Below, piece by piece: positions 36,359 to 40,529 of a stretch of DNA of 51,579 nucleotides (its first letter is position 1; each line of letters opens with the position of its first letter). Origin of the DNA: a virus (Duplodnaviria > Caudoviricetes). The stretch covers positions 1-51,579 of the IMG/VR virus record IMGVR_UViG_3300032047_000023, one strand, 5' to 3'. The position numbers and the translations under genes are program-made. The notes under the pieces were generated by a model. It did no database searches. It worked only from the letters and a program-made list of their open reading frames with translations, and was not told where the DNA came from.

Positions 36359-36416
36359 TTGACAACAACACTATAAGTATGATACTATTAGGGAGTGACT
36401 TAGGTTGCTCCCTTTT
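36359..36416 (+). terminator. Promoter firing into an intrinsic terminator hairpin
   Basis: TTGACA-18nt-TACTAT (36359-36388), then AGGGAGTGAC-TTAG-GTTGCTCCCT-TTT (36390-36416). Confidence 0.65.
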
Positions 36417-36434: not shown

Positions 36435-37139
36435 ATGACCCAACAAAAACCAAAAACTAAAAGTAAAAAACGAGAGACTAAATACAAAGGTGCTAATAAT
36501 AAACGTACTTCTGGTATTCTACCTAAGAATGAAAATCAAAAGCTACTTATTGATTCTATAAAGTCGTCATGCCAAGTTATTGTATTTGGACCTGCAGGTA
36601 CAGGTAAGACTTATGTAACAACTACGATGGCGGCTGACCTGTATATTAAAAAAGATATAGATAAAATTGTTATTACTCGTCCTATGGTTTCTGTTGGAAG
36701 AGAAATAGGTATTCTTCCAGGAGACTTGGGAGAAAAAGTAGCTCCTTGGGGTTTACCAGTTATTGATGTATTAATCAAACACCTAGGACGAGGTGCTGTT
36801 GAGACAGGTATAAAGAACGGTAATATTGACATGGCTCCTCTTGCTATGATGCGAGGACGTTCATTCGACAACGCTTTTATCATATGTGATGAAGCTCAGA
36901 ATATAACTACACATGAACTAAAAATGCTACTCACTAGGGTAGGGGAGGGTTCTACTATAGTACTCAATGGGGATATACAGCAGACTGATCTTAAAGATGG
37001 CGATGGTTTAACTAAGATAACCCACCTAGCTAAGAAACATAGCTTACCAGTGCCTATCGTTGAGTTTTCATTGGACGATATTGTACGATCAGATATTTGT
37101 GCAAGTTGGGTTAGAGTATTTTACAAAGAGGGTTTATAA
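36435..37139 (+). CDS. phoH: PhoH-family ATPase; start re-called at ATG 36435
   Basis: GPAGTGKT, LPGDL, MRGRSF, DEAQN, GDIQQTD, DIVRS motifs. Confidence 0.95.
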   Translation: MTQQKPKTKSKKRETKYKGANNKRTSGILPKNENQKLLIDSIKSSCQVIVFGPAGTGKTYVTTTMAADLYIKKDIDKIVITRPMVSVGREIGILPGDLGEKVAPWGLPVIDVLIKHLGRGAVETGIKNGNIDMAPLAMMRGRSFDNAFIICDEAQNITTHELKMLLTRVGEGSTIVLNGDIQQTDLKDGDGLTKITHLAKKHSLPVPIVEFSLDDIVRSDICASWVRVFYKEGL

Positions 37140-37471
37140 TGGCTCCAGATTGTTCATGGTGTGGAGATAGCACACTTAAAGGTTTTAAATGTAAAGTTTG
37201 CGGAGGCAAAAATATGGCTAAAAAGAAAAAGAATGAAGAGATAGTGAGAGAACCACAACACTACTCACGTTGGGTAATAGAACCCATTGAATTTATAATG
37301 CGTAACAAGTTTGAGTTTTGGAGAGGTAACATAATAAAGTATGTTGTTAGAGCAGGGTTTAAATCGTATGAAGGTAAAGACTCTACTGAGTCAGAGATTA
37401 TAGATTTACAAAAAGTAATAAGATATTCAGAAATGCGTATAAACCATTTAAAGGGTAAGGATAAGTTATGA
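37139..37471 (+). CDS. DUF3310-like protein
   Basis: PQHY..IEPIEFI..FWRGNIIKYVVRAG..DLQK. Confidence 0.8.
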   Translation: MAPDCSWCGDSTLKGFKCKVCGGKNMAKKKKNEEIVREPQHYSRWVIEPIEFIMRNKFEFWRGNIIKYVVRAGFKSYEGKDSTESEIIDLQKVIRYSEMRINHLKGKDKL

Positions 37472-38112
37472 AGTATGTAGTGATAATTATATTAATATCA
37501 TTAGCTTTAACTGTAGGTGTGCCTATGACAGCACATTCAGCTGATATTACTCACAGTGATTCTCAGATAACTCTTGAGGGTAAGATTAAAAATGATGACT
37601 ACAAAGAGTTACAGAGAGTTGTAGATAGAACAGGTATAAAGTCTATACGGCTTAACTCTGACGGAGGAGCTGCTATAGAAGGCTATCAAATAGGCTATAC
37701 TATACGTAAAAACAAGATGAGCACTGTAGTCAAAAAAGGAGATAGATGTCTCAGTGCCTGTGCTGTCGCTTACTTAGGTGGTACAAACAAGTACAACTAC
37801 GGTATATTAGGTTTTCATGTAGCTTGGGCGCAACAGTCAGGAAGAGACTTTAATGAAGGCATGAGAGCAGGTCAACTCTTTGGTTCTATAGATTCTATCT
37901 ACTCTTTTAATATGGGTTACACAGCTCAACTTAACTTTATTATATCTCAGATAACTAGTAAGAAAGACTTTCTTGTACTAAGTTTAGATGATCTAAAACT
38001 ATTTGAAATGGAAGATAAAGAATACACAAGTTTTAAAACACTACCTAAAAACTGGATGTCTGACAGGCTTTATAACCCACTTAGACTTCACTTACTAACA
38101 GGAGGTCGATAA
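37468..38112 (+). CDS. Exported ClpP/crotonase-fold protein (COG3904-like)
   Basis: Signal peptide ending AHSA; LNSDGG, CLSACA and LGFH motifs. Confidence 0.75.
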   Translation: MKYVVIIILISLALTVGVPMTAHSADITHSDSQITLEGKIKNDDYKELQRVVDRTGIKSIRLNSDGGAAIEGYQIGYTIRKNKMSTVVKKGDRCLSACAVAYLGGTNKYNYGILGFHVAWAQQSGRDFNEGMRAGQLFGSIDSIYSFNMGYTAQLNFIISQITSKKDFLVLSLDDLKLFEMEDKEYTSFKTLPKNWMSDRLYNPLRLHLLTGGR

Positions 38113-38522
38113 TGAATAAATGGAAATGGTGGTTCGTCACTAACTCAGGCATATTAGCTCTAATTATAGGTCACATTAAGTTTGATCTATTTAATAAACT
38201 ATTAACATCAGATAGTACATATCTTACTTTTTTTATAATAGGCATTTCTCTTGCAACATCAGCATCTATGTTTTTCAAAAGGACTGATATGCATTGGTTT
38301 GCATCAGACGCAGTTTTATCTATAGGTATGGTAGGAACTTTATTCGGTTTTCTTATGGTATTAGGTCAAAGCTTTACAGACATAGACACAAGCTCAGTAG
38401 AGAGTATGACAGATGCTATAGGTCTATTGGCTACTGGAATGTCTACAGCCCTTATAACGTCTCTTGTAGGTCTCATAGCCTCTTTATGGTTAAAGCTACA
38501 GCTAGTTATACTAGGAGATTAA
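38112..38522 (+). CDS. MotA/TolQ/ExbB proton-channel family protein
   Basis: Four hydrophobic helices; IGMVGTLFGF...LATGMSTALITSLVGL signature. Confidence 0.85.
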   Translation: MNKWKWWFVTNSGILALIIGHIKFDLFNKLLTSDSTYLTFFIIGISLATSASMFFKRTDMHWFASDAVLSIGMVGTLFGFLMVLGQSFTDIDTSSVESMTDAIGLLATGMSTALITSLVGLIASLWLKLQLVILGD

Positions 38523-38523
38523 T

Positions 38524-39162
38524 ATGAGAAAGTATAATAGTAATCTAGCTTTTGTTGACTTACTTTTTAATTTACTCATTGGGTTTACTAGTCTGTTTGT
38601 TATTTCATTTTTACTAATAAATCCAATATCTAAAAAGGGAGTAGTTGACCCACCTGTAAAAGTAATGTTTGAAATATCGTGGGATGACAAAAGCTACCAT
38701 GATATAGACTTATATTTAAAAGGACCTGATAATCAAGTTGTATATTATGCTAACAAAACTAATGGGTATATAACTTTAAAAAGGGATGATTTAGGTTTCC
38801 AGACAGATACATATGAGATTAATGGAAAAGTAGAAATAGTAGAACGTAATTATGAGATTACTACTATGTCGAGTTTACCTGACGGAGACTATATAGTCAA
38901 TGTTCATTTTTATGCAAGAGGTAAAAGAAGACCTACTGACCCTGTTAATATCAAAGTAACTGATCTTGAGCAAGAGGTTTTTGTACGAGTAACAAGTATA
39001 CAACCTTTCAAGATACTTGCTGATACATCTACAATACTTAAATACTTTCAAGAACGAACTATACTTGTTTTTAAAGTATTAGATGGTAAAATTGTAGAAG
39101 TCAGAGATGATATACAAGTCAGATTAAGAAAGAAACATGCAGGACAGGGAGGTGGGTTCTAA
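38524..39162 (+). CDS. ExbD/TolR/MotB-like single-TM partner with a periplasmic beta domain
   Basis: NLAFVDLLFNLLIGF TM with intramembrane Asp; ISWDD..DIDLYLKGPD (YfaP-like) domain. Confidence 0.7.
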   Translation: MRKYNSNLAFVDLLFNLLIGFTSLFVISFLLINPISKKGVVDPPVKVMFEISWDDKSYHDIDLYLKGPDNQVVYYANKTNGYITLKRDDLGFQTDTYEINGKVEIVERNYEITTMSSLPDGDYIVNVHFYARGKRRPTDPVNIKVTDLEQEVFVRVTSIQPFKILADTSTILKYFQERTILVFKVLDGKIVEVRDDIQVRLRKKHAGQGGGF

Positions 39163-39596
39163 TGACTAACATATATATAGTATATTTACTATTAAGCACT
39201 TTTGTAGTATTTTTAATGTTTTATTCTAGGTTAAATGTATTTATTAAAGCTTTAGCTTTATCAGCTACAATTCTTTTAGGTTTACTTACTCAAGCACATT
39301 ACATACTACAACTAGGTAAGCCTATAGAAAAGTACCCTGCAGATAAATTTGTGTATATACATCATATGTCCCAAGTAGATAAGATATACGTTTGGGTATG
39401 GACTGATGAAGCAGGTAATAGACTACATGTAATACCCTACAATCAGGACACAGCCAAGGAGTTACAAAAAGGTAAAGAAGAACAGCAAAGAGGTTCTACC
39501 CAAGAAGGTAAGTTTTCTAAAGTTAAAGACGGTTCCAACAACCCAGGTCTCATAATAGACACTTGGAAAGGACCAAAGAGTTTAAATAATAAATAA
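39162..39596 (+). CDS. Two-TM membrane protein
   Basis: Two N-terminal hydrophobic helices; LGKP and IYVWV motifs; TAATG coupling. Confidence 0.7.
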   Translation: MTNIYIVYLLLSTFVVFLMFYSRLNVFIKALALSATILLGLLTQAHYILQLGKPIEKYPADKFVYIHHMSQVDKIYVWVWTDEAGNRLHVIPYNQDTAKELQKGKEEQQRGSTQEGKFSKVKDGSNNPGLIIDTWKGPKSLNNK

Positions 39597-39607
39597 AGGA
39601 AGATATA

Positions 39608-40231
39608 GTGAATATATTAGAAATGGCTAAGAAAACTATAAAAGAAACAACTAAGGTTACAACAAAGGAGGCTAAACCAGAGCCTGCAATGCTACCTCCT
39701 GGTTCTTACTTAAGAGAGCACGGTATGCTTATGCTAATAGATAAGTTTGATCAAGAAAAGATTATGCCTCTAGTAGCTGCTATATATGAATACAATTTAA
39801 TGCCAGAGGATTTAAGACCAGATCAAATTACATTGGTAATCAATAGCCCAGGGGGTTCAGTACACTCAGCCTTTCACCTTATTGATGCAATAAAGATGTC
39901 AGAAATACCTGTAGTAACAATAGGTAAGGGTCTGGTTGCCTCTTGTGGAGTACTAACTATAATGGCAGGTAGTCGTCGACTATTAACACACAACACGTCT
40001 GTTATGTCACATCAGTACTCATGGGGTTCTAAAGGAAAAGAACATGAACTACATGCAATGATTAAAGAGTTTGATTTAGCAGGTGATCGTATGATCAATC
40101 ACTACAAGAAGTGTACTAAAAAGTCAGAGAAGTATATTCGTAAGAATCTATTACATCCTACTGATGAATGGCTTACTCCAGAGGAGTGTGTTAAACATGG
40201 TATTGTTGACGAAATAGTTAACACATATTAG
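39608..40231 (+). CDS. clpP: ClpP-like serine protease
   Basis: INSPGGSV; catalytic Ser (VASCG), His (MSHQ) and Asp (TDEWL); GIVDEI. Confidence 0.88.
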   Translation: MNILEMAKKTIKETTKVTTKEAKPEPAMLPPGSYLREHGMLMLIDKFDQEKIMPLVAAIYEYNLMPEDLRPDQITLVINSPGGSVHSAFHLIDAIKMSEIPVVTIGKGLVASCGVLTIMAGSRRLLTHNTSVMSHQYSWGSKGKEHELHAMIKEFDLAGDRMINHYKKCTKKSEKYIRKNLLHPTDEWLTPEECVKHGIVDEIVNTY

Positions 40232-40234
40232 ACC

Positions 40235-40263
40235 TTGACAAAAGGGTGTTCTTATGATACACT
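40235..40263 (+). promoter_or_regulatory. Sigma70-type promoter overlapping a hairpin
   Basis: TTGACA-17nt-TACACT; AAGGGTGT..ACACTCCCTT stem. Confidence 0.65.
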
Positions 40264-40286: not shown

Positions 40287-40529
40287 ATGTTGATGACTAC
40301 CAAACGCAAAAAGCCCCCTGCTCCTAGTCTGGAACAAGAGGCTAAAGCCTTTATTAAATCTAAAGAAACAACCACTGTGAATGTTCCTAAGAGTCTCTCC
40401 TCTCATAAAGAACAACTAGCAGCTTCAGTCCTAGCTGGACTGCTAGGTTCCAGTGGAGGTAATCGAGCAGAAGAACTCGTACAAGAAGCATACAGGTATG
40501 TGGACCTTTTGCTTCAATATAAAAAGTAA
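40287..40529 (+). CDS. Hypothetical protein, last gene of the + arm
   Basis: AAGGA RBS; LAASVLAGLL..AYRYVDLLL motif. Confidence 0.65.
   Translation: MLMTTKRKKPPAPSLEQEAKAFIKSKETTTVNVPKSLSSHKEQLAASVLAGLLGSSGGNRAEELVQEAYRYVDLLLQYKK

Follow-up and report, generated by a model that had tools for sequence, protein, structure and literature searches.

Genes at the locus

The stretch of DNA analysed here (the window) is the whole of the IMG/VR virus record IMGVR_UViG_3300032047_000023, 51,579 bases long and estimated to be 93% complete, and our subject is a run of five consecutive open reading frames (ORFs) within it, which we named w1 to w5. The record encodes a capsid protein, a portal, a terminase, a primase-helicase and a DNA polymerase. 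Comparison of the capsid protein gave 87% identity to its counterpart in Roseobacter phage CRP-13 and 69% to the one in Puniceispirillum phage HMO-2011, which makes the record an HMO-2011-type marine podovirus. Our analysis showed that the conserved unit at this locus is made of three of the five genes, w2, w3 and w4 (the trio), which are found in the same order in distantly related phages and in bacterial chromosomes, and which together encode a candidate ion-coupled complex of the inner membrane. The five ORFs are the following:

w1, 37468-38112, + strand: 214 amino acids (aa), exported protein of predicted ClpP/crotonase fold
w2, 38112-38522, + strand: 136 aa, putative four-helix A-type subunit resembling MotA, ExbB, TolQ and ZorA
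w3, 38524-39162, + strand: 212 aa, putative B-type subunit with a membrane helix carrying Asp12 and a domain of predicted TerD fold
w4, 39162-39596, + strand: 144 aa, putative two-helix third conserved subunit, with no family match
w5, 39608-40231, + strand: 207 aa, GTG start, ClpP-family peptidase

The genes are closely packed. An ATGA overlap joins w1 to the gene before it (a DUF3310 gene, see the last section), TAATG overlaps join w1 to w2 and w3 to w4, a single nucleotide (nt) separates w2 from w3, and an 11-nt gap containing AGGAAG separates w4 from w5. An earlier note on this DNA had described five tightly coupled genes here, and both its coordinates and its junctions proved exact. Each of the five has many relatives whose alignments contain invariant residues, and for this reason we read w1-w5 as real genes rather than chance ORFs.

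The conserved unit is w2-w3-w4

Viral contigs were scanned, giving 56 loci, 53 of which hold a w3 ORF (about 24 clusters at 90% identity), and the gene content of these loci was called with hidden Markov models (HMMs) built from alignments of w1-w5. The w2 gene lies directly upstream of w3 in all 53, and w4 lies directly downstream in 49, the remaining four loci ending inside w3. The two outer genes are less constant: w1 is found upstream in 45 of the 53 and is missing from eight, and w5, present in 37, adjoins w4 in just six of these (L004-L008, which are of the window's own kind, and L041), lying 1.4-3.1 kb downstream of w3 in the other 31. Eight divergent viral loci carry w2-w3-w4 only, and some of them are T4-like by their neighbours (UvsY in L054). 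When a phage collection was searched, w3 matched 30 records (27 Rhizobium, 2 Sinorhizobium and one weak Vibrio match). Three of the 30 were examined for context, those of phages 16-3, RHph_N3_19 and RL2RES, and all three keep the order w2-w3-w4 (in 16-3 the small ORFs p039 and p041 separate the gene pairs of the trio) and have no w1 and no ClpP-fold neighbour.

Podoviruses, T4-like phages and two bacterial phyla (see below) thus share the order of the trio with the temperate phage 16-3, in frames that mostly overlap or touch. What is conserved as a unit is the trio rather than the full set of five genes, and the bracket of two ClpP-fold proteins around it is restricted to the window's own sub-lineage. 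The earlier picture of a five-gene operon bracketed by two ClpP-fold proteins is right for that sub-lineage and has to be reduced to a core of three genes elsewhere, and how far the protease genes accompany the channel pair is given by the counts for w1 and w5 above.

w2, a minimal MotA/ExbB/ZorA-type subunit

By sequence, the w2 family clearly belongs to the MotA/TolQ/ExbB/ZorA superfamily. All 18 aligned members match PF01618 at E <= 0.1 (best 1.6e-9), two chromosomal relatives exceed the 22.9-bit cut-off of that family with 30.9 and 32.4 bits, many w2 relatives among the 120 matches listed carry a precomputed PF01618 match, and one chromosomal relative has a weak NCBIfam PomA match (E 0.0015). 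The description of w2 as a compact MotA/TolQ/ExbB channel subunit, made in the earlier note, is borne out by these matches. A PADLOC scan of w2 found ZorA-type models only (ZorA2 and ZorA1 groups, E 6.3e-8 to 0.062), the best being ZorA2 over residues 35-133 (6.3e-8), and ZorA2 models match all 18 family members (best 4.1e-11) over three helices; ZorA models are the only MotA-like models that PADLOC holds, so these matches show no specific kinship. On such comparisons, the likeness of w2 to the membrane part of ZorA appears at least equal to its likeness to ExbB. At E <= 0.001 the w2 profile reaches 1,895 cluster representatives, of which 1,042 remain at E <= 1e-10, and a tblastn search of w2 against 50,697 phage records gave no match.

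Alignment with hhalign placed w2 residues 71-126 onto Escherichia coli ExbB 143-190 (E 3.1e-4) and TolQ 140-188 (E 0.0084), with probabilities, 39% and 5%, that are both low. In this alignment, w2 Thr76 is paired with ExbB T148 and TolQ T145, and w2 Ser117 with ExbB T181, threonines that we take to line the ion path. The GxxGT motif and the S/T motif of the last helix are jointly present in 91 of 93 w2 HMM matches. A hydropathy scan (19 residues) found three hydrophobic segments, and a first, N-terminal helix was added from reading of the sequence, suggesting a protein of four helices with short loops. About 10 residues lie between helices 2 and 3 and about nine after the last helix (sequence reading and hydropathy), and w2 would have essentially no cytoplasmic domain.

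Three contigs from three samples carry an additional gene of 150 aa between a normal w2 and a normal w3 (L017:3576-4028, L056:4983-5435 and L058:4196-4648). The first ~37 residues of this hybrid are the w3 Asp helix (w3 HMM positions 1-33, E 3e-16), which replaces the first w2 helix, and the remainder is w2 (w2 HMM positions 11-143, E 3e-54). The copy has diverged from its neighbour, and an in-frame tandem duplication would explain it. The w3 Asp helix and the first w2 helix have the same orientation, and the hybrid is a mild hint that they are neighbours. A prediction of the complex with four copies of w2 and two of w3 residues 1-50 reached a score of 0.12 against a mark of 0.32, was run without controls and is counted neither way. 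Five longer w2-family members (P0322, P0320, P0329, P0265 and P0269) were considered as w2-w3 fusions and rejected, as what they carry are extensions only.

w3, an Asp helix joined to a TerD-fold domain

The structural model of w3 (predicted local distance difference test score, pLDDT, 85.3) shows a helix at residues 6-32 followed, after a linker of about 12 residues, by a beta sandwich. The helix carries the sequence AFVDLLF, the Asp of which (D12) is invariant in 21 of 21 aligned sequences and kept in 88 of 88 HMM matches spanning marine phages, Rhizobium phages and bacteria; the single helix with an intramembrane Asp described earlier is thus confirmed, together with the conservation of that residue in homologues. 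The Asp is near the N-terminal end of the helix, comparable to TolR D23 and ExbD D25. The orientation of w3 was read from charge distribution only, which would put the Asp at the cytoplasmic end of the helix and the C-terminal domain in the periplasm.

The w3 domain (residues 45-203) was matched to TerD by VIA-align with Z 9.9 (2qz7_B, root-mean-square deviation 3.5, 131 residues aligned) and Z 8.6 (2kxt), the next best fold reaching Z 5.9, and Foldseek retrieved TerD entries at E 4.5e-4 to 6.6e-3. On the model, the predicted periplasmic domain would be a TerD-type beta sandwich, as a fold-level match. The earlier note had instead called the domain YfaP-like rather than an ExbD or OmpA domain. 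Its negative part stands, as neither an ExbD nor an OmpA domain was found; its positive part is replaced by TerD, since DUF2135/YfaP (PF09906) gives no match for the window w3 and matches seven of 21 relatives at E <= 1, all sub-threshold (best 0.025). An Atlas DUF2135 cluster was also returned for w3 with a score of only 0.83, and some JGI records bear the DUF2135 name.

Thirteen divergent sequences all keep an acidic cluster in the domain (D60, D62, D88, D89 and E111), which suggests metal binding as in TerD, and by this analogy the domain is probably Ca2+-binding. Searches for a named family were negative: w3 matched no Pfam, NCBIfam or PADLOC family (PADLOC at E <= 0.1), its profile found two chance-level matches only (0.15 and 0.47) among PDB sequences, and the Atlas search gave unnamed clusters only, mostly viral. 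The window copy has an insertion of about 10 residues (around residues 133-147; 38920-38965 in the window) that is absent from the 20 other aligned relatives, and in this region the confidence of the model falls to 63-69.

w4, a putative third subunit

The w4 product has two hydrophobic segments (residues 4-22 and 25-43), as expected from its earlier description as a two-transmembrane protein. It also has an LGxP motif, and besides the helices it comprises a small domain and a charged tail. Proteins that align with w4 are 16-3 p042, RHph_N3_19 067 and RL2RES 112, and w4 matched no Pfam, NCBIfam, PADLOC or named Atlas family, the Atlas clusters it belongs to being unnamed and mostly viral. Judging from these alignments and its constant place after w3, w4 would be a conserved two-helix partner and the third subunit of the trio.

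The trio in bacterial chromosomes

A scan of one genome per species with a w2 pattern yielded 31 loci, with w3 after w2 in 29 and w4 after w3 in 27 (an earlier genome scan with a marine w3 pattern, one exact 8-residue word, had given 97 pattern matches and 0 confirmed, a result that does not show absence). Some of the genome loci are phage-like contigs binned into genomes, for example L072 and L083. In marine Alphaproteobacteria, five contigs (L088, L090, L092, L094 and L096) carry the trio with shared neighbours, namely a divergent gene for an exported protein of ~395 aa on one side and, on the other, sufB (E 4.9e-214 against solved SufB) together with a gene of 262 aa; the two of their genomes that were searched measure ~1.0-1.1 Mb. 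In Desulfobacterales chromosomes (5-7 Mb), the trio is near acyl-CoA dehydrogenase-like genes and ispG (E 6.4e-115). The system is not restricted to phages. The chromosomal loci that were opened have no w1 or w5 match. The fixed chromosomal place in Alphaproteobacteria points to a stable cellular function of the trio.

Five trio-bearing genomes were searched for the known relatives of these proteins: all five carry canonical MotA/ExbB genes (~1e-36), and four have TonB_C matches. Because the host genomes also carry these, the trio in bacteria is an extra system and not a replacement for MotA/ExbB or Ton. In a tree of w3, the chromosomal sequences (12 rows) group into a single clade with support of 99/97, placed among viral rows. 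The tree held 18 of 59 viral or phage w3 sequences and 17 of 29 genome w3 sequences together with the window, near-identical loci being left out, and as it was rooted at the midpoint only, we draw no direction of transfer from it.

The ClpP-fold proteins and the accessory block

The w1 protein begins with a hydrophobic leader (residues 4-22), and its AlphaFold2 model (pLDDT 88.6) matched 431 PDB chains at E <= 0.001 in Foldseek, with ClpP at the top and NfeD-type protease 1510-N, SppA and enoyl-CoA hydratases also in the list. Six residues (G66, G67, C94, S96, C98 and H117) do not vary among the 16 aligned sequences, and the CLSAC and GFH motifs are present and conserved. From its model, w1 is an exported protein of the ClpP/crotonase fold, as the earlier note had it, and from its sequence it is probably a periplasmic Ser-His peptidase. 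By sequence search, w1 has no Pfam family above cut-off, its 16 members have no CLP_protease match at E <= 0.1, its matches to PDB ClpP sequences are weak (E 0.15-0.9), and hhalign of w1 against w5 aligned the GG motif only (probability 18%). Given its distribution, w1 is a gene of this phage lineage and not of the trio core. Besides w1, one more exported ClpP-fold protein is paired with the trio, in a Desulfobacterales contig: a ClpP-fold gene with a lipoprotein-like leader (L078:580-1230) lies 2 nt upstream of w2, matching the w5 HMM at 1.8e-11 and the w1 HMM at 3.5e-6, and the w3 of that contig falls in a separate clade of the tree.

The w5 product matches PF00574 with 95.9 bits (3.4e-27) and has 105 matches among PDB ClpP-type sequences at E <= 1e-5. 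Its Ser112, His135 and Asp186 align to the Ser, His and Asp columns of ClpP, which we take to be the catalytic ones, and are invariant in 13 of 13 relatives, so that the intact triad reported earlier is confirmed. As w5 has no leader, it is presumably cytoplasmic, and no ClpX or ClpA partner is encoded near it. We regard w5 as loosely linked to the trio, a separate cytoplasmic ClpP within the accessory region.

The gap between w4 and w5 is filled in most relatives by a gene for an SbmA/BacA-like inner-membrane transporter (PF05992, 4.8e-124), which is found in 36 of the 56 viral loci and directly after w4 in 35 of them (for example L016:6022-6996). In L041 it is placed before w2, and it is also found in the divergent loci L066 (4567-5637) and L067 (3793-4773). 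The window and its closest relatives, L004-L008, have no such gene. Some related loci also carry an endonuclease there. In the same region of relatives, L025:7528-8598 encodes a subtilase (PF00082, 1.2e-16) with a lipoprotein-like leader, and L013:7007-8032 encodes a Glu/Leu/Phe/Val dehydrogenase (PF02812 and PF00208), to which the ORF L011:7189-8214 is near-identical. Two of the three Rhizobium phages examined have a leader-bearing trypsin-like peptidase (PF13365) ~3 kb or less from the trio, at L001:2247-3146 (16-3 p036, 3.6e-20) and L002:7285-7977 (RHph_N3_19 gene 075, 4e-12); RL2RES has no trypsin-like peptidase annotated within 4 kb of its trio.

The close relative CRP-13 shows what this part of the genome looks like with the block missing. 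Its gene order is reductase, glutaredoxin, PhoH, a small gene (gp34) and the convergent large gene; the whole block is missing, and no HMM match for w1-w5 was found in CRP-13. A tblastn search with w3 and w5 likewise found no Roseobacter, Puniceispirillum or Pelagibacter phage record. Together with the DUF3310 gene, w1-w5 are an optional accessory block at the end of the early/middle operon in this HMO-2011-type phage.

A putative ion-driven envelope machine

Flagella, Ton and Tol transport, gliding and Zorya defence are all powered by ion-driven complexes of the 5:2 type, and in each case the work is done by cytoplasmic or wall-binding parts. The Ton, Tol, Mot and Zorya complexes have two B helices inside a ring of five A subunits, with an Asp as the carrier of the ion. 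The trio matches these complexes in the family placement of w2, in the invariant Asp of w3 and in the fixed order of A gene, B gene and third gene, and we give an even chance to the proposal that w2, w3 and w4 form a self-contained, ion-coupled assembly of the 5:2 motor type in the inner membrane, which the phage carries as an accessory module of its own. Starting from the observed gene calls, the w1 and w3 folds, the family placement of w2, residue conservation, gene order and distribution, we infer a topology, a stoichiometry, ion coupling, Ca2+ binding and a role for the trio.

In the proposed complex, w2 would form the outer ring, in five copies by analogy with solved relatives, and the w3 helix would sit inside that ring, in two copies by the same analogy. 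Asp12 of w3, near the cytoplasmic end, would take up and release an ion, facing Thr76 and Ser/Thr117 of w2. With w2 bare on the inside and the w3 linker only ~12 residues long, any output would have to be at the periplasmic face, via the TerD-fold domain of w3 and w4. In this lineage w1 is joined to the trio and may act on periplasmic or envelope proteins. As described in PMC11946911, truncations of the ZorA tail did not impair assembly of the membrane motor, and a ring with no cytoplasmic part is on that account plausible.

The comparison with ExbB-ExbD-TonB and TolQ-TolR-TolA reveals the same three-gene order of A subunit, B subunit and third membrane protein. Within these, w2 shares the last two helices of ExbB (143-190) and TolQ (140-188) including GxxGT, and w3, like TolR and ExbD, has a single N-terminal helix with the Asp near its start (D23 and D25, respectively). 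At the same time, w2 has 136 aa against 244 and 230 aa for ExbB and TolQ, having an extra N-terminal helix and no cytoplasmic domain; the domain of w3 has, unlike that of ExbD, a predicted TerD fold, and the record holds no ExbD (PF02472) match; and w4, unlike TonB and TolA, has two helices, with no TonB_C (PF03544) match at E <= 1 in the whole record, in agreement with the earlier observation that a TonB/TolA gene is lacking. MotA-MotB and PomA-PomB share with the trio an A subunit of four helices and a single-helix B subunit with an ion-binding Asp, but w2 lacks the cytoplasmic torque-generating loop of MotA/PomA, w3 lacks the OmpA-like wall-binding domain of MotB/PomB, and the record has no flagellar genes.

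Residues 45-203 of w3 share the fold of the TerD family (tellurite-resistance, Ca2+-binding beta sandwich; Z values as above). TerD proteins are soluble and cytoplasmic, whereas that of w3 is attached to a membrane helix, is predicted to be periplasmic and has no sequence-family match to TerD. As for the proteases, w5 is a ClpP family member with the triad, and w1 has the same predicted fold with invariant Ser and His at ClpP-like spacing, but with a leader, a probably periplasmic location and no Pfam ClpP match; by Foldseek, the w1 fold is also that of the self-compartmentalising serine peptidases NfeD (1510-N) and SppA. ZorAB is a 5:2 proton-driven complex with its key Asp in ZorB (PMC11946911). 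The match of w2 to the membrane domain of ZorA2 is a likeness to this system that does not imply closer kinship than to ExbB, and the differences are that w2 has no counterpart of the long cytoplasmic tail required for defence, that w3 has no ZorB or peptidoglycan-binding match in PADLOC, and that no ZorC, ZorD or ZorE partner was seen adjoining the trio.

Several observations weigh against the proposed machine. The window w2 itself scores 16.3 bits against PF01618 (E 0.0086; 15.8 bits in a six-frame search), under the 22.9 cut-off, the w2 family profile has 0 matches at E <= 1 among PDB sequences, its hhalign probabilities are low, and its ZorA matches come from a collection with no other MotA-like models. 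For w3, hhalign detected no similarity between its profile and E. coli TolR or ExbD, and a TerD Pfam match is absent among 21 w3 members at E <= 1, so that the TerD likeness is one of fold level only. With w3 having no known peptidoglycan-binding or ExbD domain and w2 no cytoplasmic domain, the working parts of the studied 5:2 motors are missing. Exported ClpP-fold proteins like w1 also occur with no w2, w3 or w4 match nearby in Agrobacterium phage Atu_ph08 (L064:1332-2021, w1 HMM 7e-26) and in Vibrio phage qdvp001 (L065:2501-3094, w1 HMM 8e-18, ~1.2 kb downstream of rIIA and rIIB). To these must be added, as regards a role in exclusion or defence, that what speaks for it is accessory status, patchy distribution and ZorA likeness, and these alone.

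Possible roles and rival explanations

Our first guess as to the role of the trio would be a defence-like or exclusion function, in which the infected cell's envelope or membrane potential is altered against competing phages, and exclusion of rival phages is weakly favoured. A bolder version, which we hold to be doubtful, is that the trio is a new and smallest class of 5:2-type ion-driven machine, shared by small-genome marine bacteria, sulfate-reducer relatives and phages, and that it works as a membrane-only Zorya-like defence, an envelope sensor/effector made of a four-helix ring subunit lacking any cytoplasmic part, an axle subunit (w3) ending in a Ca2+-binding TerD-like domain and a dedicated third subunit of two helices, which would block incoming phages and be used by phages against rivals. 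A lysis cassette was considered as the leading interpretation and rejected, since the genes around the block are those of DNA metabolism and CRP-13 is lytic despite having no such block.

The chromosomal copies raise a different idea, in which the phage genes are a copy of a normal bacterial envelope module and keep its function running during infection, in the manner of auxiliary metabolic genes. Combined, in most relatives, with the SbmA/BacA-like importer, an exported protease and a cytoplasmic ClpP, the module might serve the breakdown of envelope or periplasmic proteins and the uptake of peptides for phage production in nutrient-poor water. Such a booster would fit the presence of the trio in ~1 Mb marine alphaproteobacterial chromosomes (conserved neighbours in five contigs) and in Desulfobacterales, the frequency of the SbmA/BacA-like gene (36 of 56 viral loci, 35 of them with the gene directly after w4, and also L066 and L067), the dehydrogenase (L011, L013) or subtilase lipoprotein (L025) of some loci, and the PhoH and ribonucleotide reductase genes just upstream of the block. 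We think it rather unlikely, given that the window and L004-L008 keep w1-w5 with no SbmA-like gene, that neither SbmA nor ClpP lies next to the trio in the Rhizobium phage regions or in chromosomes, that a junction of convergent transcription units may simply collect unrelated extras, and that the bacterial copies offer no defined host function to boost. The absence of a cytoplasmic domain from w2 and of a wall-binding domain from w3, with the ~12-residue linker, leaves no obvious stator anchor or rotor partner and could also be read as a sign that no mechanical work is done, w2 and w3 forming instead a gated ion leak that the TerD-like domain plugs or opens, perhaps by Ca2+, and that, like RexB, depolarises the membrane when signalled, serving exclusion or the timing of lysis. 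MotB-type plugs sit directly after the membrane helix, which is the position of the TerD-fold domain in w3, and the acidic cluster (D60, D62, D88, D89 and E111, invariant across 13 divergent sequences) would be in keeping with such gating. A leak of this kind is nevertheless improbable in our view, because the strictly conserved w4 would be superfluous to it, because CRP-13 completes its lytic cycle with the block missing, so that the block is not an essential lysis system, and because retention next to housekeeping genes in bacterial genomes of ~1 Mb, as seen for the trio, would be odd for a suicide channel.

The genes may also not make up one machine, being five unrelated small envelope and protease genes gathered at a spot for accessory genes. 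In this sense one can take the occurrence of w5 and w1, each elsewhere with no trio, the insertion of other genes between w4 and w5 in most relatives, and a promoter scan with no enrichment (see below); but the w2-w3-w4 order across podoviruses, T4-like phages, 16-3 and two bacterial phyla is not chance, and we give the idea little credence. Finally, tail-less w2 might act as a decoy, mixing into host ZorA, TolQ or ExbB rings and disabling Zorya, or Tol- or Ton-dependent entry of rivals. The PADLOC matches of w2 are solely ZorA-type (E 6.3e-8 to 0.062), the block is accessory (missing from CRP-13), and ZorA minus its tail assembles yet gives no defence (PMC11946911), so that a tail-less mimic could be dominant-negative. 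On the other side, a decoy would need neither its own Asp partner nor a conserved third subunit, the trio is found in chromosomes that also carry canonical MotA/ExbB (E ~1e-36) and, in four of five genomes, TonB_C, w3 has no ZorB match in PADLOC, and a literature search turned up no anti-Zorya protein of such a kind; a decoy role is very unlikely.

We return to the trio as an ion-coupled complex to consider what it could mean. With neither w3 nor w4 matching a Pfam, NCBIfam or PADLOC model, the trio appears to be the core of a known ion-motor family in a new form: it keeps the membrane core only, to which a TerD-fold domain and a third subunit of a new kind are added. The trio is abundant, and is found in ~1 Mb marine bacterial genomes with few spare genes and in phages of three body plans. 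Its function could bring to light a new way of using the proton gradient at the envelope, and would account for a recurring accessory block in the abundant HMO-2011-type marine phages. If the trio is only an odd ExbB-like channel of dull role, the gain would be a correct annotation for several thousand "hypothetical" proteins. In the literature, supplementary tables aside, we found no functional description of a phage MotA/ExbB-like trio, and mentions of ExbB were at the level of annotation. A phage "TonB-system energizer ExbB" is named as a metabolic helper gene, with no test of it, in PMC11361711. Similarly, the available portion of PMC12505986 classifies bacterial MotAB relatives and mentions phage for Zorya defence only, and the main text of PMC9038755 has 0 mentions of Clp, MotA, ExbB, SbmA or protease, its supplementary gene tables being where such genes may be annotated.

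Neighbouring genes and other observations

Upstream of the block lie a ribonucleotide reductase gene, PhoH (PF02562, 9.9e-64) and the DUF3310 gene, and downstream of w5 lies w6, followed by a convergent gene of 1,226 aa. The two genes that flank w1-w5 directly are:

DUF3310 gene, 37139-37471, + strand: PF11753 at 2.6e-9, with a 4-nt overlap with the start of w1
w6, 40287-40529, + strand: 80 aa, found invariably after w5 in related loci (phmmer)

No family match was found for w6 in the Pfam, NCBIfam and PADLOC scans. A blastn search with the region gave short matches alone, all of them under the DUF3310 gene.

Contigs from metatranscriptomes (four runs from four studies) are 90-95% identical to the window and span w1-w2-w3 (37406-38645) and w3-w4-w5 (38834-39891); RNA libraries can contain DNA, and contigs assembled from them do not demonstrate a transcript, so these are not counted as proof of expression. 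Promoter-like sites are not enriched across the region (25 observed against 25.8 expected from shuffles). Two of them may be mentioned for their positions, one ahead of PhoH (36359-36388) and the other between w5 and w6 (40235-40263), the latter reading TTGACA-17-TACACT with a TG preceding the second hexamer.

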